DNA from: Lama glama
Taxonomy: Eukaryota
Assembly (NCBI GenBank): GCA_028534125.1
Contig: CM052816.1
Coordinates: 60,328,001-60,392,000, forward strand
Direction: 5' to 3'
Length of the DNA: 64,000 bases
A program made the translations under genes and the position numbers. Below, piece after piece: positions 9,072 to 48,969 of this stretch. The notes beneath the pieces were generated by a model, which was given only the letters and a program-made list of their open reading frames with translations, made no database searches and had not been told where the DNA came from. Within the stretch, counting starts at the first letter, position 1; each line of letters begins with the position of its first letter.

Positions 9072-9149
9072 TCTGGTGTAATGTGGCAAGAGATACTAAC
9101 TTTTTAAAAATCTGGTGTAATGTGGCAAGAGATACTAACTTTTTAAAAA
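9072..9149. repeat. Perfect 39-bp tandem duplication
   Basis: TCTGGTGTAATGTGGCAAGAGATACTAACTTTTTAAAAA at 9072-9110 and 9111-9149. Confidence 0.95.
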
Positions 9150-23924: not shown

Positions 23925-24037
23925 TGGGAGGTGTGTAAGAATACAAATATGTGCGTGCAAATTTGTGGGGAGCAAAAGATAGAGGTGTTGGAGAGGGATA
24001 AATATGAGTTTCAGAAATTTTTACTGGTGGCAATTCA

Positions 24038-24077
24038 TCAAAGGGGTGATATTCTCTCAGCATTTGGACCCACAAGG
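24038..24077 (-). CDS. MAST4: Candidate MAST4 alternative terminal coding exon (LVGPNAERISPL*)
   Basis: TTTTTCTTTTCCACACTGATTACTAG|C CTT GTG GGT CCA AAT GCT GAG AGA ATA TCA CCC CTT TGA TGA. In phase 2 this aligns with the recalled C-terminus of the short human MAST4 isoform (PVCPNAGRTSPLG*). Confidence 0.6.
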
Positions 24078-24184
24078 CTAGTAATCAGTGTGGAAAAGAA
24101 AAACTGATGTGCACAATTATGGCTTCTCTCTCTATAATACAGATCAATTATTCCTCTGTTTCAAAACCAATGACCTCTGCAAAC

Positions 24185-24905
24185 CTAAATGCATTCTTAC
24201 CATACAATCCAGCAATTGTACTCCCCAGATGTATTCAAAGGAGGTAAAAACGTACATCCCCACAAAAACCTGCACACACAGATTGACAGCAGTTTTACTC
24301 ATAATTGCCAAAACTTGGAAGTGACTGAGATGTCCTTCAGTTAAGTGAATGATCAAACTGTGGTACATCCAGCACTAGAACATTGTTCAGTGCTAAAAAG
24401 AAATGAGCTACCAAGTCACAAAAACAGAGAGCAATCTTAAATGCATGTTACTACATGGAAGAAGCCAATCTGAGAAGGCTGCATCCTGTATGATTCCAAC
24501 TAAATGACATTCCGGAGAAGACAAAACTGGAGGTAGTAGTGGTTACCAGGGGTTGTGGGGTGAAGCAGAGAGGGGTGAATAGGCAGGACAAAGGGTTTTT
24601 AGGGCAGTGAAAATACCCTGTATGACACCATACTGAAGATACATGTCATGAGAAATTTGTTCAAATCCATACAATGGACAAGAGGGAACCATAATGTAAA
24701 CTGTAGACTTTGGGTGATAATGTGTCATGTAGGTTCATCAACTGTAACAGAAGCCCCACTCTGGGGAGGCTGTTAGTAATGGGGGAGGCTATGCACGGAT
24801 AGGGGCAGGGGTATACAGCAGAGGGGAAACCTCTGTACTGTCTCCTCCATTTTGCTATGACCCTAAACCTGTTCTGCTCTAAAACAATAAAATCAATTTT
24901 AAAAA
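24185..24905 (+). mobile_element. L1 (L1MC-like) 3' fragment
   Basis: TACCATACAATCCAGCAATT, TAATTGCCAAAACTTGGAA, AAACTGTGGTACATCC, GAAGCCAATCTGA and GACTTTGGGTGATAATG, ending in AATAAA plus an A-rich tail. Confidence 0.85.
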
Positions 24906-27900
24906 GTGTTTTAATTTGTCTTATATTTTAGGCCAAAGGATATCCATGATGATTGATAAATTATTCTTCCAAAAAGGACAAAAAACCCAAACCCTATAAT
25001 CCCTACTGACCACAAAAACAAAGCCCAGCTTGGTCCAGCCTCAGCACTTAGCAGGTCTTCCCTTCCGTTCAGTTCCCCGCACTGCGCTCCCCAGGACCCC
25101 CGCTCTCCACGCTTAAACCCGCCCTCCGGGCTTCTGCTGTGCCCCCCCACCCGCCAGCTCCTCTTCTCTTTCTGATTGACAGCCTCTCATCCTTCTACAG
25201 CCAGAGAGCATCTCCTCGGGGAGCTCCCGGCTGAACTGGAATCACACAGAGTTCATCCTCTCTCCCCTTGTCTGTTATTATATGACAGTTAACTGTTTTC
25301 ATGTCAGTCTTCCCGGAGGGAAGGTCATGGGTCATCCATCTTGGTAGCCCAGCCTCTGCTGCGGGGTGGTGATTGGCAATCAATACATGTTTGTAAGATG
25401 AATGAATGGTTCCACAATGTGCATGGCCACACAGGTGGCTTCAAATCTCTTTTGACGAGGGAGGGTGGAGACAAGGAGGAAGTGGGGCCCAGGTTCCCCT
25501 CTTGCTGTACTGCTTGGTGCTTTCACTGCCTTGTTAACACAGGGCTGATTTCCCCCCAGTTCAGCTGTTTCCATTTGCCTGCCCATCCCCCACACCCTGA
25601 TTCCATCTCCCCAAATCTTACCCTTCCTCCAAGCCTGGCCTCCTACCTTACCCCCCCTAAAGACCTTTTCCAGCTATACATGCACAGGCAGGCCCCAGGT
25701 AGAGGGAAGAGAAATAGGTTAAGTTGTAAAACCACTCCAGGCCTCCTGCTCACAGAAGGCCAGCCCTGAAGACAATCCTGGTTTGGTAACACAGACGGCA
25801 AAGGCCTCCCTACAGACAGTGCCCGGGTGTCTCGCGCTGCTCAAGAGCCTGGTCTTCCCAGGAGGAAAACCTAGTGTCCCTCAAGCTGCTGCTACAGCAA
25901 GGCCTTCTTCCCTTGTCACCTGCAGGGTACCTTCCCCTTGCCCGCACCCCAGGCCCCTGATTCCACGGCCTGGCCCAGGTCAGCACGGACCTCTCGGCAT
26001 CACTCCACACAGGGGGCAACTCTACTGTGTGAAACCATTCTGTTCCACGTCTGTGAAACCACTCGCCTGCTTCTCCCCGAATCCCTGCCCGCATCTCCTC
26101 CAGCTCCTCAGCCCCACAGCCGTACCTGCGGGTTCCCAGGCCGAGCCTCGGAGACACTTCTCAATAGCTGACCTCGTCTAGTCCCATAGCCTTATATCTC
26201 CCCTACCGGCCCAGAAGATCTAATGCTTCTCTGAAATTCAGATGTCACATGAGTGCCGTATAAATGTCCCAAATTTAACATAAACAAAACCAGACTCTTG
26301 TTTTCTGCCACCAGCGGCTCCTTCTCAAGTCTTCCCCACTGTGGGAACCAGAACCACCATCTCCTCGGTGACTCCAGCCAACAATTGAGAAACGCCTCCG
26401 GATTCTGATTTTCTCTCAACCCGCCTCTTTCAGCTTACCTGTCAGTGGGTCCTGTGCATCCTCCTCCAGAGCACAGGCTCAGTCCAACCACTTCTCTCCA
26501 ACCTCACCCATTATCCACCCCCACCCTCCCTCTACCCCTCCCCCACCCCCGCCCCACACCCACAGGCCCTTCCTTAGGTCGCTCTTGCCCTGGGAACCTC
26601 TCTGCCTGGAATGCTTTCACTTTGGTATTCTCATGGCTGGTGTTTTCCCATCATTCTGGTCCAGCTTGCATGTCATTCCCTCAGAAAAAAAGAAGCCACC
26701 AGACCACCCTACTTAATTCCTCTGCAAATCACCTGTTCTTCTCTGGTGTTTTTTTGGCTTGTATGTTTATGGTAGCATTCTTTTCTCCCTCCCCTAGACC
26801 TCGCTGGAATATAAGTTCCATGAGAGTAGAAACCTTCTCTATCCCATTCCCTGCTGCATCCTCAGAGCCCAGAACACAGCCCAGCCAGCAGCTGATGCTC
26901 AAAATGACCGCGTGCTGTCGGAATGAAGGTGGGGCCCACTGCCTGCATCTCCCCTGCGTCACTCCTCAACACTCCTGGCTAAAATAAGACTTTGGGATGC
27001 ACAATCCAAGACTTCTCTGTCCTCTCTCCATTTACACTTAACAAGAGTTTACTTTCTATCCTCCATAATCTGATGTTGTGAGTTAATCTTTGTATTTCTC
27101 CAGGATTTCTACCTTTAATAAGATTTCGTAGAAGGTAAGCCACCGGAATAGACCATCTGTCAATAAGTCACAACATCACATTAAAAAAAAAAACTGTAAG
27201 CCATCCTCCTCCTCATCAGCCTGACAGCTATTATTTGCTAATCAGCTCTGTGCCTGGTACTTAATCATCCTGGACACGGAAAGATAAGCATTAGCTTCCC
27301 CATCATATGGATGAAGAAACTGGGTCTCAGAGATACAGTGTAACTGGCACCAAGTCCTCTGAAGCAAGTGACAAAACCACAAGAGCCTGGCTAATGGTAG
27401 GTTAAAATGTCTCAGAGGGAGGTCTAGATATATTAAACAAAATAACTGTCTGTTTACCTCTAAATCAGCATCTCAAATCCCAGCTTCTGATAAAGTCACA
27501 AGAACGATCAGATCCAGAGTCACACATTCTGATTCCTGGAACAAAGCGAAGTGGTGGCCATCTGCGATCCCGGAGAAGCAGCACCACAAAGACAAGTGAC
27601 ATTAATGTCTCCAGAACTGCACCCATACACTGGCTTCACCTGGGGTCTCGCCCACAAATGCTGCCGTTTGTGGCGGCCCCCGTGACATTTCAATCCTCCT
27701 AATGAAGAAGCTACGAAGAGATGTTGGGAGCACAGGAAAGGCTCACTGGCAGCAAAAGGCTAGAATTTTCAACCGCGTTTCTACTGCTCTGATGAAATGA
27801 AGTCAGCTAGATAGTCACGGCCATGCTCACCACTGAGCTCCCTAAATAAAAATGCTAAATCAAAGCTGTAACTCTCTGATGAATGGGGTAGCATTGCTCG

Positions 27901-30900
27901 ATACATATTTTAGTGTACTGCAGATTGATATTAAAACTAAATCTAACTAGACAATGAACCCTGTGTAGTTGGGGAAATTAATCACCAGCCAAAGGGCACC
28001 ACAGCCCAGCAGAGGCTGCAGGCTGGCAACCTACTTCGAGCAAATTGCCGACAGGCACTTTAATGAGGGAGAAAATACGAGCTACCGTAACTGGTCAAAT
28101 CAGCTCCTGCAGGAGGGAAGGCACATTAACTGATGGGCTGATATCCGCAGCCAAAAGATCAGCTGCCATGGAGAACAAAAGGCTGTCAAAGCAGGATGCC
28201 GTTGCTAAGCCAAGGCAGCCCAGGGTGAGGGTTTAAGCTGCAATGTGACGTTCTCAAGGGGAACTCAAGTTTTGTTTCTAACGTCAGCTCTTGAGGTGAT
28301 TTTTATTGATGTCGCTAGCTCTCCCCGACTACCAACAGGAGATTCCAACAGGTTGTCATGATGTCTTGGGCTTTAGAGACTTTGATAAATAATCAAAATT
28401 TGCTGTCATACCTGATGACATAATTTTCCTACCTATGCAGGTAGTGATGTCCAGACACATTTGTATCACTCGATTGCATCTCTGAGTGAGCCTTACATCA
28501 AGTGAGACACTTTGCCAAACCTTGATTAGAATCAACTTCAGTCTCCTGAAGGAAAGAGAAATGGCTATTGTTTCCCACTTTTTTTTTAAATTGACATATA
28601 GTCGGTTTATAATAATGGTGGTTTTTAAGGTGAGCGCACGTGGGGACACACACAAGCACACATACACAGTGATGTCCAGACTGGGGTTAAGGCCACTACT
28701 GTTAAGGGAAAAAGAACATTTCGCCTGCAGAGAGCTGCAAGACCATCGCACAAGGAGGAACCGGGTCCTGGCCTTGGCATTTTCTAGTTGGCGAGCCCGT
28801 GGGCAGTAACGGAATCCCTGCAAATCCTGATTTCCTCACCTATAAAGTGGGAATCTCACCGCCGAGTAACTCCGTCTGCTCTACCTGCTCCCACAAAGGG
28901 GAGGCCTCAGATTACTGGGGCTTCCTCACACATCACAAAGGAAAAGTGATAGGGTCAAGTTCAAATCAACAAACAGTGGGCATGACCTCACTGAGCTTTT
29001 ATGAGGCACCAATTAGAGTCTATACGTGAGGAGTGTCCCTAAATTGGAGAGCTCTGTACAACTACTGAGCCAAATTGATCTTGGCAGAGACACCAAGCTT
29101 TCAGTGCTTCCCCAGAAGCTGTGTCCCTGCACAGCCCTCAGAACCAAAGTGGGCCAGAGAGTGTCTTGAAAAATGCAATCCCCAAATTAACTGGGGCAAA
29201 AATAAGGCTAGCCCTAGCCTTCCTTATCTTTCAACAACCCAAATCAATTTATAAGGTGATGGAATGCATGCTCTCCCAATACAAGTTTGGAATATATATA
29301 TATCTACTTTTAGAAGCTTCTAAAGCTTCTGGCCAATTTCTGTCGAAACAAATCCAATGCAACTATGCCACTTTCACAATTTCCACTGCCAAATCCATGG
29401 CCTAGGTGCTGCCGCCCCATCTCACCCTCATTCCTGTTGCTACCACAGTAAGTAGTGCTGACTCATTATACAGTTTTTAGCCATCAAGCCCCTAGCTGAG
29501 CCTCAGAATTCTTCTTAACGCAGGGTTCTAAGTGCCTCTTCACAAGAGTAGTTGAAAAGAAGTATTTATTATTAGCGATCTCTAAAAGAGAGAAATGAGC
29601 AATTGGCTTAGTTAAATGGCTTTCCAAAAAGAAAATTTCTCCATTGGGCTCATCATTGCCAATAAATAAAAGCATCAATATTAGATAATTTCATCCATTC
29701 AATCAATAGAGTCAGCTGTTCTGGGTAACATTTCACAAGTACCTCACCCTAGAAGGCTTAATAATAAGCAGTGCTCCCCAGAGTTACCCGTTCTATTATG
29801 AGGTACGTGGGGAAGCAGCAGGTTACAAAATTTTGCCTTTAAAGTGTTTGTGCCCAGCTGATCTCTCTGGTACTCAGCTGCACAGAGCCTGGGGTCTCAG
29901 AATTCCTCAGGGGGATCGTAGGAGAAGGAGCTTTTCTGCCCGGCTTCTGGGGGCGTCGCTAGAGGACCTAGAGGCTACATGCCTGAGCTGGGACATCGGG
30001 TTGTTCAGGTGTTTCTCCAATCAGAGTATTCGGTTTACTCCCCAGTTAGCAGGACTCAGGAAGTCACAGCTGAACGTGCCCCGTCAGGGCTAGTCCCTGT
30101 TCTCTGAACCGGGAACTGCTCACAGTTTTTCCTTCATCGAGCCCCAGACCACAGGAAGAAGCAGCAAGGCGGGTTCTGTGGAGCGTCTGCCTCCCACTCG
30201 CAGTCTGACAGAGGCCTGGGAGCCCTGCTGACACCTCCCACATCTCCCTCCCCCCCACACAGGGAGCCCCGGGACCCCTCCCTGCTCCAGCAGCAGCACC
30301 CCAGCAGCAGGCGGGATGTTCCCACTCGGCTGTTATGCCGTCGTTTTCAGATTCGACATTACTAAACACAACCAAAAATGAAATCGTTATTTCCCAAGTT
30401 GATGTTTCTCCTAACTCCCTATTTCTCTCTGAAATATCACAGTTCCTTCAGCCTCCATCAAGCCTCCCATCTCTCAGCTGGTCTAGCGACTCTCCTTCCG
30501 AAATACCCTTCATATTCTTCCTTCCTCTTCTCAATGTCATCCTCCTAGTTCTGCCCTTTATTCTTCCTTTTCGGTGCTTTGCTTCCTCCTCTCTATTCGT
30601 ACCATGTTTCTCCAGGGCAAAGACCTTACTAAAGTTCCATCTTCTCAGTGGAAAACCTCAGACACGCTCCACGCTGAGAAAATAACACCCAAGACTTGTG
30701 GACTGGCACGTGAGGTACTCTACACTTTGTGCTCCTCCTTTCCCTTCCGTGAAGCCTCCGCTGTCCACGCTGCAGTTACTCAAGCTCTTGGACAAGCCAC
30801 ATCATCGCCCCCTCCCCGGATCACACATCCGTCATTCCTTCCACTCTGACCCCTGAGGACCCGCCTTCCTTTCACTTACTTAGCCCCTCGTCAACCTCAA

Positions 30901-33552
30901 CGGTCCAGTTCAAATCCTGCTCCCAAATTCCTAAATCCTCTGGCTGCACCACTTAGGTGGCCCTTGTAACATCATCCTCTGCATTTTATTTTTTCAGGCG
31001 TCCAGGCTGAAGTAAATTGTTACTTAAAACCAAAGTTAAGTTCCAAGAAAATCAGAACACCTCCTCTTCTGGTAACTTTCATGGCATTAGGAGAGCACAC
31101 CGCCAGAGGCGGCTCTATGTGCTGACTGACTGACGTGCTACAACTTACAAGTTGTTTTGAGATGACTTCCTAAGCACCGAGTTTAGAACACAGAATGAAC
31201 TCGAATGGGTGCATCTGAGGTCTTGCCTCCCGTTAGTAACCCTCACTCTCATTACCAAAAACTCACCCAAGAGCCACCCAGCCTTGGAAGCTCTTAAGAA
31301 ACCACCATTTTTGGACGGAAGAGAAGAGGTAAGTTCATTTTATGGAAAATAAATAGAAAAAATATTTCTGACTTTAATACCAGTTTAAACTGATCGCAGA
31401 AATTTCAAAGTATATCCTCTCTCATGTCCATTCATAACCACACTTTCAACCTGTATGTATAATAACACAGTGCCTCAGAATAAGCAAGCAGTATAAAAAT
31501 TTGCATGCTTTTACAGTAACCTACACAGTGGTTGGATAAAACCCACGTGGGAGTGCCCCCGAACGGGGAATAGCAGTGGACATGCCTTCGGAGATAGGAC
31601 AGCCGTTGAGTTCTAAGTGCTGAGTTCAAATCCTCTAACAGACAAAACAAGGAAACACATTCTCTCTCAAGCTCTTTCAGTTCTGTTTTCACAAGAGAAT
31701 ATAAAACCAAATGGAATCTCACGTATTTCAACAGCTGTGGTAATTTATCATCTTTTTTTCCTTTTGGAACTAGACAATGGCCACCGTAACCTTGAGGTGT
31801 AACCTGAGGGGTCATGAAGGTGGAGGACAGTGACTCATGCCTGTGAAGCTGTTATGAGCAATCTGTGAGTCCAAACACTGCCAACAGTCTGAATAAGCAA
31901 AGCCACACACAGAACCACTAGTATGTTTCTCAAATGTCTATAGATGCTGTTGGGAGCAATAAATCAGAGAATATTAAATGTCTTGGAATTCACAATCATT
32001 TGCTGCTTTCCATCTTTTCTTAATCAAGAGATACCTTCAATTAAGGGGTTGTGTGGGGTATTCTACCAAAAAACCTGACATTAAAAAAGGATTCCCAGAA
32101 TGACAAAAGTGAGACCATCTCTACCAGATTCTTGACGCTGACCTCGTACTCACCCAGTGCCACACAGTCCTGGGGCTTTTCAAGCTTTCAGGCTGCTGGT
32201 GGTCCCCGTGCCATGTCTATGAAAGTCAGCTCCCTTTGTAACTCCCATTATTGATAGAAGAATATAGATGCAAATGAGTTGAGGATGGTGGTCAGTGGCT
32301 ACTGAAAGGATAAACAGGGCACTCATTTATCCAGATTTTATCTCACATTGAGCTAAACAGAAAGCTCATATAACCAAGGCTCCAAGACAGTGCTCTAAAT
32401 TCCAGAAAGGTACAGGTAAAGGGTAGAGAAATCAAGCACTTTATAACTGTCGCACACAAAATCTCCAGATCTACACAGCGGGGATGCTAACTGTCCAGAC
32501 CCCTCTGCCGGATGCCAGGGTCTAGGAATTCCCCCCCACGTCCTGGTTCCTGAGCAAGTCCGCAGAGTCCCCTCTGTTCAACACCTGACTTCATTCTCCT
32601 AACGCCTGTGCAGAGGGAGTAGCATGGGATTCTCATGACCCTATTACTGCTGTCACACTTCAGTCAAGCTGTTTCCTTACTTCTTCCCAATACGCGGCTG
32701 AGAGCTCCCTGAGTGGAGGGATGGAACCCTGTTTATTCTCATCTCACCACCACACCAGGCTCTCAGATGCAAATTGGCTGTTGAATGAATGCAAGCACCT
32801 GAAGCCCCAGCCCTGGGGGAGGGGCAGGAGCAGCAGGGCAGGCCAGGAGGCCTAGAGCACGGGTCTGCAGCCCGGTCTGCAACAGGAGACTTTTAACAGC
32901 TGCTGGGGAGGAAAAGTGAGCCAAGCCAAGCACTCTGCAGGAAGCGGTAAGGCATTGGAGGGCTGGAATGGCAGGTCATCCTGCGGCTTTTATTTGGAGC
33001 CGTGTGCACTGTCTGTAATGTGTCAGGAAGCCACCACATACATGGAAACTGAAGCAGCAAAGATTCCATGAGATGTGGCTAAAAGGCACCATCAACTAGA
33101 CAGCAAGGGATTCTCTCCTCTGTGTAAATACAGACACATGGTCACACATATGCTCAAAGGCATCCAAAATCTGGAAGGTTCAGACAGCACCTCAAGAAGG
33201 AATAAGGCCCCTGGGCTGTGGGAAACACGCTGGGCATCTTCCAACCTTTAAAGACCTTTATCCTTTAAGGATGCCCTCAGGGTACCACCTCTCCCACGTC
33301 TGTCCCTGACCTCTCCAGCCACAGTGGTCTAGCTCTTTCATGACCATCTTTACGAGCAGTATTAGAAGGAGGCGGGGTGCTGGGCGTGAAGGACCATGGC
33401 ACTAACAATCAGAAAAGCTGGTTCAGGTCACATGACTCCCCCAGGCCGTGGTCCCCCTTCTGTGAAAGGGAGGCAGAGGGGCTCATCCACAGGGCCCTCA
33501 CAGAGTCATCTGAGGGTCACAAGAAAGTGAGGGAGTACACAGTTTACCATTT

Positions 33553-33945
33553 CATTTGGTTTCTATGGCTGCTACGACAGATTACCACAAACCGGGTAGT
33601 TTTAGACAAGGAAAAGGCATTCTCTCACCATCCTGGAGGCCAAAAGTCCAAAATCAGATCAAAGGCCAACTCCGGATGTCAGCAGGCTGTGCTTCCTCAG
33701 GAGGCACCAGGGGACAGCCTGCCGCCTGCCTCTTCCGGCTTCTCTGTGTCCAATCTCCCTCTGCCTCTCTCAGGATTATTGTGATTGGATTAACAACCCA
33801 CCAGGATAATCCAGTGTAATCTCTTCATCTCAAAATCCTTAAATTAATCACAACCTAAAAGGCTCTTTTTCCAAATAAGATAATGTCTACTAGTTGCAGG
33901 GATTAGGATCTGAAACCTTTGGGGCCACCATTCAGGCCAATCCAC
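33553..33945 (-). mobile_element. MaLR LTR (MLT1C-like)
   Basis: GGCTGCT...ATTACCACAAAC...CTGGAGGCCAAAAGTCCAAAATCA ... ATCTCAAAATCCTTAAATTAATCAC...TTTCCAAATAAG. Confidence 0.75.
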
Positions 33946-33998
33946 TCACCAACTACATTAAGTGTTTAAAGTACAATTCCTGCCCTGTATTTGTTTCT

Positions 33999-34203
33999 TT
34001 CTTTCTTTCTTTTTTGCATATATCTTTTTTTTAAATTTTAACAGTGATTTTTATTTATTTATTTATTTTGGGTTTTTTTTTGGGGGGGAGGGTTATTAGG
34101 TTTATTTATATCTTTATTTTTAAGAGGAGGTACTGGGGATTGAACCCAGGATCTCAGGCATGTTAAGCATGTGCTCTACCACTGAGCTATACCCTCTCCC
34201 CCC
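33999..34203 (-). mobile_element. tRNA-derived SINE (camelid Vic-1-like) with long compound A-rich tail
   Basis: Minus strand GGGTATAGCTCAGTGGTAGAG ... GGGTTCAATCCCCAGTACCTCC. TSD GTATTYGTTTCT at 33987-33998 and 34204-34215 (one C/T difference). Confidence 0.88.
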
Positions 34204-35169
34204 GTATTCGTTTCTAATTCACCTCCTCTCAGCTAGAACATAAATTCTTTGAGAATAAGAACAACTCTCATACTCTGCATGTCCCATGAAGGCTTTTAAG
34301 GTATTATTTGTTCATTTGGAAAATAAAATCATTATTCTACTCAAGTTTTAGATCCCATGTAAAAATTCTAACGCAATGTGAAGTGTTTCATTTTTTTTTT
34401 TTCTAAAATAGCCAGAGCTTCTGTTCAGAGAAGCTGGGGAAAGAGGGACCACATCATAGATGCTTCCACTGTCTCTGCCAAGCACCTTGCACTGAGTGTC
34501 ACTTGTGACGCACTGTTAGTGCAAACCGTTCCACACCATCACCGAAATCCAAAGGCAGGAAAACCACTGGAAGTAAAATCGCAATAAACTCCCTCTAAAC
34601 GAATGCGTGTGAGCTCCATGTAGCCCGATTCACCTCAGTATCAAGAATAGAAAATTCAGCAGCTAATCTGGAAGAGTTTGATGAAGGCTCAAAATGGGGA
34701 GTACATGCATTCAGTCATTTTTTTCGACAAGTATTTATTGAGGACATACTATGTACCCAGTAGCGAGGAAAACAGGCACATCACTGCCAGTTTAAGGGCT
34801 TCATGCTAGTTGGGCAAAATAAATAACAAACAAACCTTATACAACGAGGGGGATACACATCAAAGGGGACCTCAGGAAAGAGGTTTAAGGGAGGGGGTGT
34901 TGGGGCTCTCTAAGAGGGGCTGTCACAGTGGTGCCTAGTTCAGACAGTAAGGAAGTGAAGGAGAGGTCAGGTGACTGGAGAGCAGGAGCAAGAGTGCTCC
35001 TCCAGCCGTTCCCAACAGCTGGAACAGCTTGCTGTGTCAGAAGATGAGGTGCTCGAAGACCAACAGGACCAGGTCAAAAGGAGTTGTCTTGACAGGCTTC
35101 CCACTGATGAATTTGGGGACATCCTGACCAACAAAAACAGGAACGGTGGTCACGGATTATCACGCACCA

Positions 35170-36125
35170 AATAGATGTTATCTATTTTATTCATTGAAAA
35201 AGATGCATGAATCGTTAATGATACTCCTAAAAATAGGGGGAGAGGAAGGAGGATGACTTATTCTCTAACTGAAAAATACCAGCTAACAGTAGAATTAGAA
35301 AACTGTCACTTAACAAACAGCAACATGGCAACTGACTCCAGCAAGATCACCGAAGAATGCAAAAACCATCAGGCAAAATTTTGTTGCGAAAAGGATACTC
35401 ATGTGAACTCAGAATGTTGCTCTAGAGCTTACCCAATAAAGCAAAAGGCATAAAACCACAGGGAAAAGTCTGGCAGGCACTAGATTTAGGGCTTCCCAAT
35501 GTGATGCTCTGGGTAAGACACCTTCTCCTGTTCTTGTCAAACATGCTCAACCTCAATCTAATGATGAAGAAGCCATCAGATAAACTGAGATGGTGGGATA
35601 GCCAATCACACAGTTGTCCTGTACTCTTGAAGAGTGTCAACATTATAAAAAGACCAAAAAAAAAAAAAGTAAACCTGTTCTAAATTAAAGGAGACTAAAG
35701 AGATCTGACAACTATGTGGAATAGATAATCTTTAATTGGATTCTGGATTTAAAAATACAACTTGAAAGAACTTTTGGAGGCATAACTGCAGAAATCTGAT
35801 ATGGACTGCATATCAGATAATATTGCAATCATGTTCAACCTAGGAGTATAATAATGACATAATGATGTTATGGCTATGAAGAGCAGGTACTTGTTCTCAG
35901 GAGATAAATGTTGGAGTATTTAGGGGTGAAATGTCTGAATGTCTGCAAATTACTCTCAAATGGTTCAGCAAAAAAAAAAAAAAACTTTTAATATGTATGT
36001 ATACTAAAAGGGAAGGAGGCAGGAAGATAAAGCCAATGTGGTGAGTGTCAACTGGTGAATCAAGGTGAACATGGGTGTTGTCTGTACTGTTCTAACTCTT
36101 TTGGTAGGTTTGGAATTTTTTAAGA
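35170..36125 (+). mobile_element. Old L1 (L1MC/L1ME-like) 3' UTR fragment
   Basis: AAATTAAAGGAGACTAAAGAGATCTGACAACT, GTATTTAGGGGTGA, CAAATTACTCTCAAATGGTTCAG, CTGTACTGTTCTAACTCTTTTG. Confidence 0.65.
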
Positions 36126-37154: not shown

Positions 37155-37195
37155 ACACACACACACACACACACACACACATGCACACACACACA
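37155..37195. repeat. (CA)n microsatellite
   Basis: Direct reading of the CA dinucleotide run. Confidence 0.9.
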
Positions 37196-37414
37196 AAGCA
37201 ATTTTTTCATTTATCCCAAGATGATCTAGTAAGGGAGAGATAAATGCTAAGGTTCCATAGAATAATTTCAATATATTCTAAAACCAAAATTCAAAATTTG
37301 GTTAAATAAACAGGTCACAATATTTGGTCCAGAAAGACAATGTTGCAATGAACACTCATGAGTGATGAGGGCCAAATGAATGTATAATGGTGAGTGGTAA
37401 AAACGAAGTGTCTA

Positions 37415-37485
37415 ATTGGAATTTGACACAACATTGTAAAATGATTATAAATCAATAAAAAATGTTAAAAAAAAAAAAAACAAAC
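37415..37485 (+). mobile_element. Extremely 5'-truncated young L1 3' end with poly(A) and 13-bp TSD
   Basis: GAATTTGACACAACATTGTAAA...TCAATAAAAAA followed by poly(A). Perfect TSD AACGAAGTGTCTA at 37402-37414 and 37486-37498. Confidence 0.8.
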
Positions 37486-38149
37486 AACGAAGTGTCTAGG
37501 CTCCTTGCGCTTGGGGTGGGGTTCCTTCTACAGGCCTTTAGAAGCATGCCTTCTAATAGAGCTGACAGGGCCTAAGACCACCACACCAACGGGGAGACGC
37601 TGCCAGCACGGAGCAGAAGCAGGCCAGCGCCGGTGGAGGGAACTGGGCACAGACTGCCCGGGTTAGGGCAGCCGTAGCTCTCAGTGCCTTTGGGGCCCAT
37701 GGCCTGGTTTCCAAATGAAATCAATTTAACCTTCAGTGTATCACTTAGGCTCTGTCTAAAATAAAACCTAAAAAAACCCAGAAAATAGGGCACCACAGTT
37801 CAAAATATGCTCCCTGGTCCCATAACCACACTCCCAACAGAGGACTGAAAAATTGACTTGTACGGTGAACCAAACAGATGAGCTTCAGATGGTAACAAAA
37901 ATCACCTTCCCTTTAAAGAGCATATTCGATCTAGAACGCAAAGTTAACAGGACTGCAAACTGAAGTGTGTTGAAGGAAGGTGTAGACAGTGCCGCTTGAT
38001 GCCCTAGAATGACAGTGGGGGTTCTTCCCCTGGAGGCTTGAGTCTGAACCAGATCAAGCCTCTCACTAGGTGTTGGTAAGTGGATACAATTTGTTCAAAC
38101 TTGGAGGCTTTGAGAGTGAAAGGGGGCACTTTTAACAATCACTCTGGGA

Positions 38150-38360
38150 CAGGAGGCATGAGCTGAACTGAACCTGGGCATGCTGAGATGCATGGTCACG
38201 ACGGAGAAGTTTGTTTCTCTGGACCTCAGTTTTCCCATCTGTAAAATGTGAAACTGTGTTTCTTGCCTAACAGGCACTGTGAGAACCACAGGAGTTAACA
38301 TACGTAAAGCACTTAGGAGAGCGTAGGGCACATAGCAAGGTCTCAGTGAACGCTGGAAAC
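38150..38360 (+). mobile_element. MIR SINE
   Basis: CTCTGGACCTCAGTTTTCCCATCTGTAAAATG (MIR core)...ACGTAAAGCACTTAG...GGCACATAGCAAG. Confidence 0.75.
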
Positions 38361-41300
38361 CAAGCCACTGCACATGCAAATATTTAAGTCAATCATTTTA
38401 GCCTCCCACTCAACTCAGTAAGCCAAATAGCAAACTTAGCACGAAAAAGTGAACACATAACAAAAAACTGAGAATCATCATAACAAAAACTAAGACCCCT
38501 GAAAGGCTCCCAGTGCCTGGCGATGTAGGCACCTACACCCGTGAGAATGAAGGCTCTGAACTGATATGATAAACTTACCTGACCTTACAAGACCTCATCC
38601 CCTAGGCTCAGTAACTTCATAACAGCTAAGTTTATCATATCAGTTCAGAAAATAATAAACTCTAGGGAAAAAACCCAAAAGAAAGTACCTGAACACTTTC
38701 TGTAGTAAGTTTACTATGCATCTTTCCCCATCACTGCACGTGAGTCTACCCCCGTCCACCATCCCCCACAGACACATCACCTCATTCTCCCTTCTCTGGA
38801 TTCTTACAAGCAACAGAAGCCTCCAGAGGGTGGCACTGGCAGAAACCACGGGAAGGCCAAGAGAAGCGCTAACTGGTCAGTCCACACCTTCCCTGCCACC
38901 CCTCCAGAGGCACCTGAGACTGCCAACCTTCCCATCTCTGCCCAGCCCACAGCCACAGGACCAACAAAGCGTCCATAACTGTGCCCATCCCTGCTTTGGA
39001 GAACCACTCCACGGAGCACGTGCACTAAACAGCTCTGGTTCTACACAACGATTCAGAAATAAAACTCGGGGATGCATAAGGCAGTTCATTAAACCATCCC
39101 ATTCCCCAAAGCACTGAAACTGGTGTCTTCAGAGTATGAATAAATTGCCATCTGGTACTAGCTTCTTCAGATTCTTCTCAATAGCTTCCACCAAGTGAAG
39201 GGGGGAAAACAGAGAAAATGAAAAAGATAAGTGGTCCTGCTCATCCTACAAAGTAAATGAAATTAGATGGGCTTACCAGTCGGGTGATTTTCCCCACACT
39301 TACAGGTGTCCCAGGAAAAGCAGACACAAAATCACAACACACCGCCATGTATTTAGTAAACACTGATCACGTCTGCCCCTCACCATGGCAACAAGCAAAG
39401 TGAGGGGATTCAGGAAGCTGTGGGTACCCAGTAACCTTTCCAGCAGGAACAGGACAAATGGGCCCACTCTTGGCAAAACTGGACAAGGTGACCATTGTCT
39501 CCAGTGTCCTCCTCTGCTGAAGTATCATCTGCCTGTCTGTCCTTCCTACTACCCTGAGGACCACCACAGGTCCCATTCTTGCTAACAGAAATTTATCTCA
39601 TTCATTACCTGTAAGCTATTACTCTTATTCTTAGGCTGTGTGTGAGGTAGGTGAAGACCATGAAGGTCTGTGAAGTTCATGACTTGCCCCAGGTCACAAA
39701 GCTTGTATGCAGTGGGGGCAGTGGCCAAGACTCAGGCACCATGTTCCTAGTCTATCGGGGTCCCAAATTCAGTTCCTCCAGGGCCTGTCAGGTAATGTGA
39801 GTGAAGGCAGCCAGCCAGGTGGGGTCTGTGGTGCACTGGAGAACAGGAGTCCCGTAGGAAAAGGGCAGTAGGGACCCAGCTCTAGGCTAGATTACAATCA
39901 CATCAGGGAACACAGACTCACCGAAGGGCTTTGGTTTTTCAAAAGCAGCTCCCCAAAGTCCCCAGTAGCTTCAAAGCCCATTCAATGACAACAATTAACT
40001 GCTCTCATGATGTATCTGCTATACACCAAGCGCTGTTACAGGTGCCAGGGAGATGGCAGTGGCAGAACAGACAGGCTTCCACCCCATGGTGCTTACAGTC
40101 TAACTTCCTTTCCTTTAAACAGCTTATCCTCTTCCCTGTGTCATTGGCCATGACTTCTACATCACCTTCTCCGCCCCTCACCATGGCCAGGCACAGTCTC
40201 AAACATGCTCTGAGGTTTACCTTTCTTTAACAATGTGGTTCAACTCTATCCTTGAACCTCACTTTATTTATAATTAATGCCTGGTCAGTTTTTATGTCTC
40301 GAAGGTTCTAATTTAATATTTACGGAGGAATCAAAATGCATCGTCCTCCCTCTTAAAGTGTCAGCACGGTTCTCGGAGCACACAGACCGTGGACGAGCGT
40401 GGCACTGCTGCGAGCACAGGCAAAGGCCCCTCAACAGGCTTGAGTACCAGGGAACGGCACTCAGTCCATTAGGACGCAGTTATGGAGCCTCCACTACGCG
40501 TGCCAGGCACTGTCTGGGGCTCTGTGGTTATGTCTGCAGAAAGTAATAGACAGAAACAAGTGTCCTTGAGGAATGTGTGGCACAATGGCAGTGTTCCTCT
40601 CTGAAACTGGTACTCAAGCCCACCAGCAATGTGGCATGTGTGATTTCAGTCACAGCCAAAATGGGGGGGGGGGGGGTTGTGAGAGAGAAGAAAGAAATGG
40701 AACAGCCAGTCCACTGATATCTCTCATGTAGCTGACTGCGTGTCCACCACCTTGAGACTCCAGGAACCGAATGGGAAGGTGAATTCAAGGACTGGAAGAA
40801 GTAAACCAGGGGTGCAGGGAGTGCTCTGATGGTTGCCGTCCTCTCAGAAGTGGGGGCATGAAATGAAAATGCAAAAGAGCATCACTGTATCAACAGAAAC
40901 ATGGTCCCTGGGGAATGGCACCTAGCCTCCAGCTACTTACTGGTCCCTACTGAGGGCCAGGCATGCTCGGTGACAAGAAAGATCCTGAGAATGTAAAACG
41001 AGGGAATCTCCTTTGGAATTCTGCTATCTAATAATCACAGGCCAGAGTATGAGCTGGCCTGGGTCATATCCACGTTTCTCATGAGGCACTGATGTCATCA
41101 TTATATGAACAGCCACTAACGTGGAGTCAGTTTAATAAGTACTGGGGATTGTGGAAATTCTGAGTGGCTATGGTTGCCTCCAAATGGGGAAGTGGAAGGC
41201 ATATATCAATTCTACTCAAGGTTTTCAAAGTATTTTTCTATCACAGTGGGGTTGATAAACTGGTGTTTGGCACATTTTTTTTTTTAAGCTCTTGGATAAA

Positions 41301-42229
41301 TTTTGTATTTTGCCTTTCTCTCTCCAGCCTATTGTGAGACAAGAGAATCAGAATTTGGGGATGGAGAAACCTTCAGGAATAACGTGGTCTAATTATCTGT
41401 TCCACATCTTTCCAGGTACATGGGAACTTGGCTTTCCTGAGAGATTTCCAGTGGTGTGAAACCAATGGCTTGATGAGGTGGCCCATTCTACAAGCAGAAG
41501 GCTTTCTTAGAAAATTCTTCCCCTCATACTGAGCCAAAACATGCCTTGCTGTGGCCTCCCTGCAGCACTGCAAGGTCTCATTCCTGAGACATACCCAACT
41601 GCATTTGTGTTTCTTTTAGCAGCTGAACTTCCCCAGAAGCTACGGATCTCTCACTTCAGGTCAGCCTTCAAGAAGTACTAACTCCCATCTCAGCACAGCC
41701 TGCCCCCAGGGCTTCCCTAGGAAAGGAACAGAATCTTCCACCACCATATTGAGAAACTGTGTGTCAGCACCTCAAAAGGTCACAGGCACCTGTTAATGCT
41801 CACCACCATCACTCTCCCCTGACCTTCAAACACCACTCATAAAAAAGGAACAAAGAAGAAATCTGATCCATCACAATCAATAGAAGAGAAAAACAAACAA
41901 ACAAAAAAACTCTCTGCAGAGATGCAATAAATGCTTTTTTTGTATGGTAATAGCATGAACCTACTTGGAATCTCTACAGTTCACAGTGGGACCATCATCT
42001 GGGGGCACATTATTAGAGACACCCAATTCCAAGCTGCCAACTAGATCTCTCCACCTAAATCTCAGTGTGTTCAAGACCAAACTCATCCTCATTATAATTT
42101 CCCTCCCCCTCCAATTCTGCTCTCTTGGGTTCTGTTCAATTAACACTAGACATCTCAGTGTCCATCATCCATTCAAAACTATCTACTGGACACCTACTAC
42201 GGGCACCTTTCTCTCATCAACTTTTGTGA

Positions 42230-42595
42230 CAAAGATTGCTATTACCAAACTCATTTCCTCTGCTTCCTGGACACAAGGAAGCTGTACTCTCCAGCCTTCC
42301 TTGTCCTTGGGTGTAGTTGGAATACTGAATTTTAGGCAATGGGACATGAGTGGAAGTGATGCATCTGCCAGGGCACCCTCTCCCATGCTCTTTCTCTCTT
42401 CCACCAGCTGGAATGATGTCCCGGGACAACCTTACAGGCTATGCATTGAAGATCCCCCTGGGTCTCTAAATGACTGTGTGGAGTGGATCCTTTCCACACT
42501 GTCGGTCTGTGAGTGAGTGAGAAATACAGTTCCATCATATCTGAGCCAACATATACTTGTTTGGTGGCTGATTTGTGATCAGCACTGTAACCAGT
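42230..42595 (+). mobile_element. Old MaLR LTR (MLT1I/J-like)
   Basis: CCAGCCTTCCTTG...GGCAATGGGACATGAGTGGAAGTGATG...CCTGGGTCTCTAAATGACTGTGTGGAG...GTGAGAAATA. Confidence 0.55.
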
Positions 42596-44919
42596 ACATC
42601 TTCCATTTCCAATTCATTCATTCCTCCATTCTTTCATGAACATTTCTCAAACACTGACTATACTCCAGGCATTGGAGAGGCACTGGGGAAATAAAAATGA
42701 CTAAAGGAGGTCACAGGTCTACCTAAACCAGACAATTAAAATCCAGTATAAATGATCTCATGGCGATGTGTATGTCTTAAGTTAGTCACAGTGGAAAGAT
42801 CTGAGACTTCATTTTGAATCCCATGCTGGTTTAGCTGCTTAAATACCTAAGTGTGTTAGCATCTTCATCCATAAACAGAAGCAATATTCCTTCCTGCCTA
42901 GTGTCAGGTGGATTAAATTGAATGAAACAGTGTATACAAAAGCATTCTGTCAACTATAAAGTACTTTGCAAATGTTAATTTAATTCACTGCAATTGTCCT
43001 AATCCAGGACCTGTTATTCGTGAAATATTGCACCAGCATCTTCATTAGAGTTTCTACCTAAAATTCTACCTATTCTTAATGAACAGATTAGTGAAGGTAA
43101 CTTTTCTCAGTCTGAGCTTGGATTGGTCATTTCCTTATGCAAAAAAAGTCTTCCAATACTCTACAATGCTTACAAAATGAAAGTCAAACATCTTAGCTCA
43201 GTATTCAAGGCCCTACATAGCACAGTCCCAAATTAATTGTTTTGTTTTGTTTTGTTTTCCAAATTAATTTTTAAGTCCGTATCAATCTCTGTGCAAGTCC
43301 AAGCTTTTCTTCTACTTCGCCCACACGATGTTCTAGCTAACACACCATTTCTACAATGTGCCACACTTTTTCACCTCCTTGCCTTGGTTTTTCCTTGTCT
43401 GGTTTTGTCCTTCACCACCATCTCTCCCCATTGAAACCTCCAAAATCTTCAAGGTCCAGCTCAAATATCACCAGCTCCCTAAAAATCTCTCTCCAAAAGA
43501 ACTTTTCAGAACCTCACCCGCCTCTGAACTACCACACAGCACTTGGTCTGAGTATTCTCCTCCACTATTGATAGATAGCACCTTCATTTTGAATAGCCTA
43601 TTGTCTTTAGGAAGGAAAGAGAAAAAGAAATGTGAGCATTCAACAAAGGCACGTTACACTGAAGTAGAAAGTTCAGAAGGCATTCCAATTACCTGTGGCT
43701 GAATCACCAAAAATAGACAAATTACAAGAGCAATGGAATTCTCTCGATTGTCAGAAAACTATTTCTGTGCTTTAGGATCTATTATATTCAGGGGATGCCT
43801 TATAAAAGCTGTTACATGGAACTTCCATGTTGAAAGTCACTTTTACAAGAAAAAGTATAATCCTATCAGCAGAAGAGTAGAACCACAGTTCAAAGTCACT
43901 AATTCATTTTCCCAGTCAATTCTTCTTTGCAGATTTTAGTTCAGTCTTATTTTAGAAAAATGAGAGAAACACATTTGTTAAATTGTCCCACTGATATCAC
44001 GTAAGCAGTAAGCTTCTATGTTAGTGTTTTTATGGAACTAGCCGTGAGTGGCAACTTTTTCATTCATTTGCATATATAAAGTTAAAAGTATTCATTGATA
44101 AAAATAATTTAAGTCACTCTTTCTGTCAGCTGAGAGTTTGCTTCATTTTCTCCCTTAGGATTAACAAAGGGCGGGGAGAAGCTGGGGACTCTCTCCATAC
44201 CAACGCCTCCACTCTAGATACTGAATTCACGCAAATCTTAATAGAACAGACGTACCACACGTACAATGCTAACAGTATTTCCTATCATCTATTCTTGTAA
44301 CAAACTGGGCTGAAATGCAATTCGAGTTCCTTGAAGATATTTCTCTATAGAATAGAGAAGAATGAACTTCTATCAGCCTGTGAGTGAGAGGATAGGGTAT
44401 GTAACTGGGAATTCTAAAAAAAGATTCAAAAGTAGTACTCCTTTTAGACAACTTAAGTACTTTGTCCTGTAAATAACAGAATAGGAAATAACTTGTGGCC
44501 ACAGATATGCTACTCTAACATAAATTAGAAAATGCTTTCCAGAAACTGAAAGAAACTGTATCATAAGCGATTGATCAAAACACGTGGAATTCAGTGCAGA
44601 CCATTTCCTAAGGAAAGCCATATGAAAAACAGTAAAATACACACAGGAGTCCAGCAAACAACTAATCACTGGCCACCAGGTGAACTCTGAGTAAGACACG
44701 CTCTATGGCATAAGCACAGTACATTTTCTCAGCCTGATCAAGCACAACCAGCTTCCTCGCTGCATATGTTAATGCTGAGACAACAGTTAAGGAAAAACTG
44801 TTCACTGCATAGTGCAGTCCAAAGCGTTCACATAGTCGTGGTAGGATCTGGGGGAAGGGAAGGGAAGGGAAGCAAAGGGAAGGCAAAGCAGCCCTGGGCA
44901 GGCACTGGAGCGCGCTTAC

Positions 44920-45000
44920 CTCCAGAAGTGAAAAGCGAAGAGAGGACTACAGGGACTGCCTGGGCTGGATGGGGTTGGACTCAGGCTCCTTGGAGTGAGA
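44920..45000 (-). CDS. MAST4: MAST4 81-nt symmetric phase 2-2 exon (LTPRSLSPTPSSPGSPCSPLFAFHFW)
   Basis: ATTTTAACTTTCAG|TCTCACTCCA...CACTTCTGGAG|GTAAGC, 81 nt with an open frame. It resembles the recalled MAST3 segment LSPSSQSPSLLGPSSPCSPCSPSLGLHPWS that follows the equivalent first exon. Confidence 0.9.
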
Positions 45001-46445
45001 CTGAAAGTTAAAATAATGTCATTCCAAGTGGGAGAAATGATGGCAGTATAAACACTACAGCTCATTGAAGGGACTCTGTTCCCTCTAGGCCAGAACCATC
45101 ACGGCACGCATATCAGGACCACTAGGTAATCATCTAATCACGTGCCCCTTTTTGGCTCTCAAACGGAGAACAAGCACAATGCTTCCTGCTGAAATTTACA
45201 TTCTCAAAACCACTGCTGCCATTTTTATTTGTGCCTTTCCTTTGTCACAAAACAACTTGGCAGATATATGTTCGACAAGCGATGTTTGCAAAGAAAATCC
45301 ACTGTTGTTTTTAACATTGAGTATGTTCTATTTCTGATTCAGAAGCAATGGTAAATCTATAGAAGAGCTATCGGACCACAGAAATGAAAATTGAAGTTAA
45401 ATACTGCAGTTTTTTAAAAGCAAAGCCAACAAACATTTCCATAAAGGAAGATGCATTTTTAAGCACTTTGCAGTGAAAAGTAGCCAACATGTTCTCTAAT
45501 TCTCAGGGGGCAATGGTAAAAAGTGTTCTTATGTTGATACTTGTAATAAGTAACTACAAAATTTCTCACATATGTCTATAAAGTATTTTCCTCTCCAAAG
45601 AGGTTTTTTCAAATTCATCTGTAATGGGCCATTATAATTTCTATTCTCACCAACCCATCCAAACCACCAAGCGTATTCACCAGCCAACTCTCAAATATTC
45701 AGCATGGGGTGATCTTACAGTCTCTTTAACTCCTTTACTTTTGGCTTCATGGCTCTTCTCTTTTAGGGAGGAAGTGAAACTTAAATTTATCAGATATCTT
45801 ATAACAATTTTGCCAATAGATCTAATCTATCAAAGTATGAAGTTAATACTAGTCAATTCCCAATTATTTTCACCTGGCAAAATCAAAATAAGAATTAGCT
45901 AGGTATTCTGGTACCAATTCTTAGGTTGAATTGAGTGCTGGAAACTCCTGCTACATTTTATTGAGTTTTTAAAAGAACATTCTTCTGCCTCTCCTTTGGA
46001 CCATGACTCTACATTGTACCACATTTTCCTACCCAAGAGAAAGGCGTCATGGAACTGAGTTACATTTTGGCTAATTCAAGCTGGTTGTGCCCTTCACTGT
46101 ACAGAGAAGTGGCAACAGTAACTAAAATCAGATTTGAGCATCTTAATGCCATCCTTTTTCCCCATTAGGTGGGTAATTGAGACTTGGCTCTATTTGTTTT
46201 AAACCAGAATGTTACTGTTCAAAATGTTCCAATTGACTTAACAGAGTAACATTTTATATCTTCTAAAACCATTCTCTGGTTTGGTGCCAGTACTTGGTAA
46301 ACGGAGGGATTGTTTTCCTTATACATTCAGAGCACAGTCAAAAGCTGCGCTTTTAAACATACTGGAGTCTAACTTAGCAGCTCATTGGAAAGCTCTCATG
46401 AATGTCCACAGATACAGCCATCATTTAATCTAAGTACAGTCTTAC

Positions 46446-46460
46446 CTGTTCCTTCTGGTC
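46446..46460 (-). CDS. MAST4: Candidate 15-nt MAST4 microexon ((E)TRRN(S))
   Basis: TCTTTGCATGCCTGTTTTAG|GACCAGAAGGAACAG|GTAAGA has a canonical acceptor and a strong donor. It is frame-preserving, stop-free in phase 2, and lies between the MKAQ exon and the 81-nt exon. Confidence 0.6.
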
Positions 46461-48922
46461 CTAAAACAGGCATGCAAAGACACTGAAGCAACTCCACGCC
46501 TCCAAGCTGAGACATGTTAACATGTGTGCTATGAAGTGCCTATGAACCTAATTCTATATTAAACTGAAAAAAGGAGGAAAAAAATCCAATTTCTCAGAAA
46601 TCAGAAAGCCAGCATCGGCCATTTATATGTCAGAAATTTTTGGATAAATTAATGATCCATTCATTTCTAAAATACTTATATATTTAGTGTCTCACACATC
46701 CAGGATTTCAATTTCTGAAACAGGAATCAGAAACTGCCTCATGTTATTGATAAATCAGATGGAAAATTCTGAATTGCATCTACAGAGTATAAAACACGCT
46801 AGTGTAATAGTCCATGCTGCAGTACCTACGAAATTAACTCTCCTGAAAGAAAAACAGCAATGCCTCATGAGAGAACATTCAAGAGCTGTTCTGAGTAGTT
46901 GGTCTGTTACAAGGTTCCCCAAATAAATAAAATTACATATATTAAAACTGCTCTTAATAAAATCAATGATAAGACTTTCTATTTTAACAGTTCTCTGCAG
47001 TGGTAAGAAACTGAATTTACTCAGACTGCAGAATTAGCTTTCTCAAATGAATGTAAAATTAATTACCTACCTAAGAGTAGTTTTATTTTTCAAGGTAAAC
47101 AAAACATTCAAAGTGAATTTCATGCTAACACTACAATGACATTGAAGGGTGGTCCTCTATTCTACTGTCTCAGACTCCCCAGGTAGAGGAGTGAGCTGTT
47201 TTTAGATGCACAGTAACATTTAACAGGGTAGAGGTCAGATCGAGGGGGTGTGGTCTGAGACCAAAACAAAATCCTGGGGAACCCCCTGTGCTGGGCTGAC
47301 TCGTATGTCCTACATCATCGCTGGCAAAGTCACAAAATTTGTGGCATACCCCAGTCTCTGGAATTATACAGGGAACAATGGATACAACTGAGTCTGTATT
47401 TTAAAAAGTAACTTTGATGTATCTCCTGTTAATGTGGTCGAGATACCAAAAAAGAAAGAAAGCAGAGGTGTGATGTGAAATGATAAACGCCAAGTCCAAA
47501 GACAACAACCAGGGAGCAGCACAACCAGAAGCAGTGGCGAAAGCGACGCGGGGGTTAAAGCTGTCGTTCCTGGGCCTGGAACACAGCCACGGGCATCTGA
47601 GCTGCGCGTTTCCAGGATGTTAGAGGGAGGACAGCTAAGTAGAAAGATGAGTGCATGCCACCCAAATATTTCACACAGATGAGGAGGGCTGAACGTCAGG
47701 GTGGAGAGGGGGCAACACAGAAGGCAGTGGGTATGCACTCTTTGTATCTCTATTATATGAAAAGCCACATCTAGCAAGAAGGTGGTAGGAGCCCTCCAAC
47801 TTTTTGCAGCTGAGCACCTGTTAGTAAAAATTCACTGTATAATTTTAGAGCAGGAACTGATTAGGAAAGTACTCAAATTACTTCACAAATGTTGTACTTT
47901 TTTTTTCTTCTTTCATCTATTAATTGAGAAAACAGTTTCCCTTGTATATGACGCATCTACAGGATTCAAAAGGAAGAGTTACTGCTTGGAACCAGGCACA
48001 GGTCTCACCTGCAGTCTCTTCCTGGAAGGAGTCCAGTATAAGATGACTGGGATTGCCCAGATTTCAACAAAAATGTAATTTTCTATCTGTATTGCAAGTT
48101 AGAAAGCAGACTTCTCTTTTTCTACCAGATTTCTGTTTCACTGTTTATCATTTTAAGTGTGCCAGCACAGACTAACTCAGAGCTTCTGCATCTCTGACTA
48201 CCAGATTTAAAATAAAAATTTGCTGACACTTCCTGCATCACAGATGTTCAACTTCTGCGCCACAAATTAGATGTGGGCATTTGACGTGGCTCCATCAAAT
48301 CCCAGGGCAGTCAGATACTTTAATGGGTTAAAAAGAGAGAAAGACAGAAACACAGCAAAGCAAACACAGAGCTCAACTAGGTAAACACACTGCATGCGGT
48401 AGTTGGAGACTCTGCAGAGAGGATGCAAAATGTACCACATTTCATTAATATTCTGTTGCACAGATAAAACATGGACCACATCTAATGAGTGTCACAGATA
48501 ACCCTTCTCTTGCACTCTTCTCCACTGTAATGTCTTCTGTTGTTCAATGCAGACAGAGGCCCTTCTTTAGAAAAAGACAGCATAGGGATAAACAAACAGT
48601 AAGAGAGAGGGAGGAAAAGAGAAACACAGCACGGCCTGCTGATACATTCTTTCACAATGAGCTGTTAAGCTGTTTCCAGCACTGAGGTTTAGGAACTTTA
48701 AATATGCAGCAGCGCTTTTCCTCTGACTGCAATGCAAAAAGGCTGGGTCTGGGTTTCCACATTAGCCGAAACCAAATGCCATACATTTAAGGCAGGTTCC
48801 TTCCACCTCACACTGCAGTGCTCTGAGGCTGTCAGTACAAACAAATGCTAAATAGCTATTGGTCGCAGGGACGCGCGTGCCATGCAGAAAGCATTAAAAT
48901 ATTAAAGAGAGACAATACTTAC

Positions 48923-48969
48923 TCCAAGGTCAGCCCCGGAATCTGCAGCCTTTCCCGCTGGGCTTTCAT
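48923..48969 (-). CDS. MAST4: MAST4 alternative first coding exon (MKAQRERLQIPGLTL + GA, phase 2)
   Basis: Minus strand reads ACAACC-ATG-AAAGCCCAGCGG...ACCTTGGA|GTAAGT. Kozak is good (A at -3), length is 47 nt (15 codons + 2) and the donor is canonical. The peptide matches the recalled MAST4 isoform N-terminus MKAQRERLQIPGLTLD; the paralogous MAST3 start is recalled as MKSRRDKLHIPALTLD. Confidence 0.92.

Follow-up and report, generated by a model that had tools for sequence, protein, structure and literature searches.

Does a long intron of MAST4 hold a complete nested unit that encodes a kinase-less microprotein, and would such a product have a job of its own? The initial annotation of the window (the whole 64-kb stretch of DNA that was analysed) joined three minus-strand exons, all inside this intron, into such a unit. 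We refer to them as E1 (48969-48923), E2 (45000-44920) and E3 (from 24077), and list them here with two features that bear on the length of the product.

48923..48969, minus strand: E1, coding part of an alternative MAST4 first exon; 47 nt from the ATG to a GT donor, 15 codons plus 2 nt
46446..46460, minus strand: microexon candidate of 15 nt, AG/GT; its donor is also used by a stronger upstream acceptor, 46563
44920..45000, minus strand: E2, an in-frame cassette exon of 81 nt flanked by AG and GT; it carries six S/T-P sites and is aromatic at its end
24038..24077, minus strand: coding part of E3, a likely alternative last exon; 12 codons past the junction codon, then a stop
24035..24037, minus strand: second TGA, where the 56-aa records from other mammals have their end; the product of the window stops one codon sooner

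The join of E1, E2 and E3 is 168 nt long and encodes 55 aa plus a stop, identical to the peptide proposed before, and inclusion of the microexon lengthens the product to 60 aa, so that both products of the initial annotation were reproduced. It had also claimed canonical splice sites and phase-2 joins for all three exons. The coordinates, the AG and GT dinucleotides (for E3, an acceptor AG at 24079-24078) and the frame stood, but E1, as a first exon, has a donor only, and the match of E3 falls within chance. Position 24038, taken as the end of the E3 exon, actually belongs to its TGA stop codon (24040-24038), and the 3' UTR continues into an assembly gap of 500 N. The E1>E2>E3 transcript in this animal is itself a predicted one, a point that also counts against calling it a by-product.

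The splice sites on the minus strand of the window were ranked on a crude splice matrix. By this measure the donors of E2 and the microexon were strong (ranks 9 and 4 among 3672) and that of E1 ranked 129, and the E3 acceptor was weak, at rank 854 of 4557 AGs. A phase-2 stop within 15 codons was also given by 1720 of the 3263 AGs downstream of E2, and the canonical site and phase match of E3 are not beyond chance. When the 9294 phase-2 AG sites of the window were compared with the deposited mammalian tails, E3 was the top match (score 28.8; runner-up 14.9), indicating that orthology, not splice-site quality or phase, singles it out. With the AG requirement dropped, site 6113 scored 26.1 among 127,918 positions, against 28.8 for E3; it was rejected as a second copy of E3, having neither an acceptor nor DNA likeness to it. 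The acceptor 46563 and the microexon donor bound a 118-nt frameshifting exon that a whale model employs, and the microexon peptide occurred in none of the 52 protein records compared.

Pfam detected no family in the 56-aa records P0006 and P0002, whereas the full-length goat protein P0007 has DUF1908 (from residue 76), an AGC kinase domain and a PDZ domain, the combination that marks the MAST kinase family and that the short form lacks. AlphaFold2 gave no fold (pTM 0.15, mean pLDDT 60.6). The claim that the product is without a DUF1908, kinase or PDZ domain and has no predicted fold is thus borne out by both analyses, and at 55 aa it is of microprotein size (<100 aa). As to structural likeness, the single match of a PDB search had E = 1 and is not meaningful, and the ESM Atlas returned no usable match. 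According to the accessible part of PMC13598245, MAST1 has two proven 14-3-3 motifs; they fall at residues 100 and 170 of P0007, beyond the end of the short product, so neither of these two partner-binding sites is retained in it.

Whether the exon combination is made at all had been left open by the initial annotation, a question overtaken by the databases: a gene model is deposited for human, chimpanzee and other mammals. Compared with protein databases, the in-frame sequence surrounding E2 retrieved six short proteins, and four clusters carry the E1>E2>E3 product. It occurs in 21 mammalian records of 55-56 aa, named MAST4 or uncharacterised, from apes, monkeys, lemurs, squirrel, rabbit, pig, toothed whale, cattle, musk deer, sheep, cats and dog; among the records retrieved, those ending in E3 came only from placental mammals. 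One of them, 'MAST4 isoform 16 [Pan troglodytes]' (PNI41003.1, a single record with PNJ60987.1, KAI2537702.1 and KAI4021487.1), bears the name Homo sapiens too. This record and 20 UniRef records (e.g. A0A8D1RMV8, pig) show the same three exons as the window, in the same order and register. The short records are gene models. The earlier assignment to MAST4 was correct: E1 and E2 are isoform N-termini and E3 is the end of the short human and ape model, the exons code for stretches found in proteins named MAST4, and short records also bear that name. The intronic 3' splice site of E3 lies in register with the orthologous models, as expected of an alternative last exon. The combination is therefore already annotated and not new; its function is probably minor.

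It is probable that the 21 records all go back, by projection, to one human model and are not independent RNA observations. Their accession types are, we take it, those of comparative or Ensembl-type models, and projected annotation yields gene models of equal length. That the records share a length of 56 aa was therefore rejected as proof of a conserved stop, as projection would yield the same. Presumably a human MAST4 isoform of roughly 250 aa also has the E3 ending; no longer isoform ending in E3 was found among the MAST4 proteins retrieved. P0003 (lynx) and P0004 (muntjac), two predictions whose tails are different, were omitted from the alignment of the 21 records, as were the full-length P0007 and P0019. 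The last is a 559-aa iron transporter that entered its cluster as a clustering artefact, like P0038.

We then compared the parts of the product within this alignment, whose records were pre-selected for an open frame. E1 is invariant in all 21 records, with a mean pairwise identity of 100%; the corresponding values are 97.5% in E2 and 56% in the E3 tail, of which there are 21 distinct versions. Against the same records, the window was identical in 42-43 of the 43 residues of E1+E2 and in 5-10 of the 12 tail residues (mean 7.3). The closest tail was that of pig (10/12), followed by sheep and musk deer (9/12), which fits an artiodactyl. In a neutral simulation at assumed distances of 0.15-0.40 substitutions per site, the tail kept 8.9-5.7 of 12 residues, and E1+E2 would keep only 24-29 of 43. 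The window has a leucine at the start of E3 where 20 of the 21 records have proline, and it has lost the last tail codon, whose residue stands in column 56 of all 21, so that its product has 55 aa, not 56. No coding constraint was thus detected on the isoform-specific part of 12 codons. Because its identity matches the neutral simulation, all versions differ and the window stops early, the tail looks like unconstrained sequence, although 12 codons give low power and weak selection is possible. An open tail of equal length, 12-13 codons, in 21 records may reflect selection, contrary to a by-product, although projected annotation would give the same picture.

The first 43 residues of the window were identical (43/43) to a kinase-bearing goat MAST4 (XP_017921016.1, isoform X3; P0007) and 39/43 identical to six fish and shark records, so that E1+E2 begins kinase-bearing MAST4 from shark to goat with 39-43 of 43 residues kept. 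In records from goat, fish and shark, isoforms that bear the kinase begin with E1, and in P0027 and shark P0040 it is spliced directly to the kinase body without E2. In the goat protein, in two zebra shark isoforms (XP_048382980.1, X4; XP_048382986.1, X10) and in 'MAST4 isoform 10, partial', the first 16 or 43 residues are identical or near-identical to the window, but these proteins run on into DUF1908, the kinase domain and the PDZ domain, whereas the short form exits at E3. Seven different N-termini are joined to one common exon in the shark records, and the alternative N-termini from shark to goat all enter the kinase body's first common exon in one phase; a bird record (P0054) places E2 after upstream exons. 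A paralogous module was found in three MAST3-type records (P0058, P0062 and P0063), with the alternative N-terminal module present in Crenichthys KAK5606063.1, Apodemus GAB1293274.1 and cyprinid KAF4107629.1, of which only KAK5606063.1 is named MAST3 by its source. It aligns with E1+E2 in a basic start, a hydrophobic alternating motif, an S/T-P run and a terminal tryptophan, but belongs to a paralogous gene and has no E3-like tail. Since kinase-bearing isoforms use E1+E2 and MAST3-type records carry its paralogue, the conservation of the module is explained without a microprotein. The 43-aa module is very old and rich in motifs, and a peptide containing it, if made, need not be inert, an observation that runs counter to a mere by-product.

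The motifs of the module bear on the proposal that the 55-aa peptide, carrying E1+E2 but no kinase, is a decoy that competes for a partner of the kinase. Such a partner would most plausibly be a proline-directed kinase (JNK, p38 or ERK), docking on E1 and phosphorylating the S/T-P run of E2. We took a loose MAPK D-motif consensus from the accessible part of PMC4670726, in whose main text MAST does not appear, and also applied a strict JIP1-like pattern; a D-motif has a basic residue with alternating hydrophobic residues after it and lies in a disordered region. E1 fitted the loose consensus in all nine sequences tested, but so did 44% of shuffles of the shark E1; the strict spacing occurred in four of the nine, none of them mammalian, and in 10% of shuffles. 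The six S/T-P sites of E2 lie within 27 aa, a density reached by only 0.5% of the segments across the rest of P0007. E1+E2 may accordingly be read as a docking-plus-phosphosite input for a proline-directed kinase, which the motifs suggest as a lead and not as a result. The identity of the module between the window and shark or fish (39/43) and its paralogue in MAST3-type records speak for a decoy, but the long isoforms account for all of that conservation, the E3-ending records retrieved come from placental mammals only while the module is far older, and the MAST1-type 14-3-3 motifs lie outside the product. The decoy function put forward in the initial annotation thus found no result in its support, given an apparently unconstrained tail and an E1+E2 conservation that the kinase-bearing isoforms explain, and we regard it as very unlikely. 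In its fullest form, the N-terminal module that is oldest and best conserved in MAST3/MAST4, with a MAPK-docking-like motif ahead of six proline-directed phosphosites, would be released by placental mammals as a free peptide of 55-56 aa that competes with E1-type full-length MAST4 for its upstream kinase, and the intron would be a nested kinase-plus-decoy switch set by the use of E3; to this, too, we give very little credence.

The reading we hold to be reasonably probable is that the transcript is a minor alternative-last-exon (intronic polyadenylation) product with an incidental peptide that has no job of its own. A fraction of the transcripts from the E1 promoter would be joined to the weak E3 acceptor, which lies 21 kb below E2, run into a stop 13 codons after entry into E3 and be cleaved inside the intron. 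A stop codon in the last exon escapes junction-triggered decay, and the transcript could therefore persist and a short disordered peptide be made from it. On this account the first 43 residues would be conserved because the full-length kinase needs them, and the last 12 would drift. Intronic polyadenylation and alternative-last-exon isoforms, as described in the accessible part of Devaux et al. 2025 (PMC12548281), have an intronic last exon before the main coding region and a product of <100 aa, as here. The miP-5'UTR-IPA class of the same source ends in a 5'UTR intron and has small ORFs separate from the canonical protein, whereas the MAST4 short form has 43 of its 55 residues in common with a canonical isoform, and the gene is thus not of that class. 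MAST4 is absent from the supplement of PMC12548281 as far as Table S4, a range outside which its microprotein list falls.

Whether E3 might act at the RNA level depends on its surroundings in the intron, for which the following features are relevant.

48975..49011, minus strand: two overlapping 9-codon uORFs, 49011-48982 and 49004-48975, directly 5' of the E1 ATG
48801..49200, minus strand: CpG-enriched stretch around E1, a likely internal promoter or 5' leader
23425..23924, no strand: assembly gap of 500 N, which begins 114 nt past 24038 and hides much of the presumed E3 3' UTR
21776..22727, minus strand: closest canonical poly(A) hexamers past E3, with starts at 22727 and 21781; candidates
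7624..7715, minus strand: a further alternative MAST4 first exon of 30 codons plus 2 nt with a GT donor, 16 kb downstream of E3

No donor-like GT was found in the 148 nt scanned between the E3 acceptor and the gap (best score -0.15), and the next 500 nt are N. Poly(A) hexamers number 43 on the minus strand, that is 0.68 per kb; since this is the background density, their presence below E3 is expected by chance. The stretch 48801-49200 contains 17 CpG in 400 bp, the second-richest interval of the 64 kb (median 4), and is likely the internal promoter or 5' leader of E1. At the other end, a CpG island (8301-8700) lies above the first exon 7715-7624, and peptides resembling that exon begin the shark MAST4 records P0041, P0043, P0048 and P0050. 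E3 thus has an internal first exon on either side, one at 48969 and one at 7715. Comparisons of the shark, bird and MAST3-type N-termini indicate that the intron is an old bank of alternative starts.

This position makes plausible, from layout, the attenuation route that the initial annotation had offered beside the decoy. Use of E3 would divert transcripts of E1 and of upstream promoters from the kinase exons, with transcription stopped some 15 kb short of the next internal promoter, and the peptide would be irrelevant. A recognisable E3 acceptor in the same register in all 21 records, with drifting codons behind it, speaks in favour of such regulation. A melanoma study also points in this direction, in that 16 MAST4 isoforms were counted and their use shifts between primary and metastatic melanoma, though the accessible part of that source (PMC9132324) attributes the shift to promoter choice and does not name the E3 exon. 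A metagenome scan with the pig record P0002 gave 601 pattern matches and no confirmed locus, and therefore no orthologous acceptor or poly(A) site for comparison. We consider regulated attenuation unlikely, and an early-stop by-product remains the preferred reading.

The by-product reading presupposes that the transcript is made. In the alternative, it is not made in this species, or at noise level only, E3 being a decaying cryptic exon and the records projections from one rare human cDNA. The weak acceptor, the lineage-specific early stop and the loss of a near-invariant proline agree with this, as does the outcome of the searches, in which the full matches were named gene models only and none of the unnamed sequencing-run proteins returned had E2 joined to the E3 tail. 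The two uORFs could lower translation further. Their ends lie 12 and 5 nt ahead of the E1 ATG, one of the two has a purine at -3 together with G at +4, and the second aligns with an in-frame N-terminal extension of the lizard model P0026 (6/9 residues); if the cap site lies upstream of both, translation of every E1 isoform would be damped. Against the alternative, E3 still has its AG, its phase, an open frame and the ancestral stop position, each of them intact, and that the transcript is not made in this species, or at noise level only, seems to us improbable, on a par with attenuation.

Sequencing runs were also compared with the region 23930-24400, of which E3 makes up 148 of 471 bases. Eight of the 24 runs listed, RNA or guessed to be RNA, share 0.22-0.39 of the 46 words sampled from it; three of these eight are recorded as RNA, all from one study, and four further runs share <0.2. 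These shares are compatible with exon use, and an intronic or DNA-derived signal is possible; because, in addition, they do not distinguish the part of the region or the species, we counted them as no evidence. In the open literature, we found no paper on this MAST4 isoform; subscription papers and bioRxiv supplements might hold entries. The accessible text of PMC12024977, PMC10419289, PMC9270402, PMC12732324, PMC5654999 and PMC11024027 does not mention a short MAST4 isoform, and the last of these, returned as a MAST4 literature match, was unrelated.

As it stands, the significance of the short form is small: it is an existing gene model of a common kind, an intronic last exon, whose unique tail bears no sign of constraint. 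Should it prove to be translated and stable, it would offer a natural means of titrating the presumed regulatory input to the kinase, and knock-out designs or RNA-seq counts for MAST4 could mislead if they overlook the internal promoters and E3. The more useful by-product of this analysis is the E1+E2 module, of which the accessible text of the MAST kinase literature makes no mention. It is a disordered segment of 43 residues, 39 of them kept from shark to mammal, that is shared with MAST3-type records, and a regulatory input of the kinase probably resides in it.

The MAST4 exons of the window are encoded on the minus strand, and the features surrounding the alternative first exon E1, the 81-nt in-frame cassette exon E2 and E3, the likely alternative last exon of the kinase-less product, are listed below by window position.

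Features around the MAST4 exons
49011-48975, minus strand: two overlapping 9-codon uORFs, ending 12 and 5 nt 5' of the E1 ATG
46563-46446, minus strand: 118-nt candidate poison exon, with the top-scoring acceptor/donor pair of the window
23425-23924: 500-N assembly gap, the sole gap in the window, inside the presumed E3 3' UTR
8301-8700: CpG island, the strongest in the window
7715-7624, minus strand: further alternative first exon of MAST4 below the island, 30 codons with a phase-2 donor

The second uORF has a start codon in a strong context and aligns with the in-frame N-terminal extension of the lizard model P0026. From this alignment, the E1 leader looks conserved across amniotes in a differing reading frame.

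The 118-nt exon shares its donor with the candidate 15-nt microexon, shifts the frame and contains a stop, and in the whale model P0028 we found E1 joined to its acceptor at 46563. In the muntjac prediction P0004, E2 is spliced to a nearby stop-containing segment, which is probably an ab initio artefact; positions 43840-43775 (minus strand) match the P0004 tail at 77% and represent a possible further early exit after E2. Closer to E3, the stretch 24400-24180 (minus strand), which by eye we take to resemble an old antisense L1 fragment, stops some 100 nt short of the E3 acceptor.

Sequence comparison showed that shark MAST4 records begin with peptides resembling the product of the 7715-7624 exon. 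Immediately upstream of the CpG island, a perfect 39-bp tandem duplication was observed at 9070-9150, which either arose recently or is an artefact of the assembly.

For the E1+E2 module, neither a Pfam family nor a PDB relative was identified. A paralogue of the module is present in MAST3-type records from fish and field mouse (P0058, P0062 and P0063; these comprise Crenichthys KAK5606063.1, the only one whose source names it MAST3, Apodemus GAB1293274.1 and cyprinid KAF4107629.1), suggesting that the module probably originated before the MAST3/MAST4 split.
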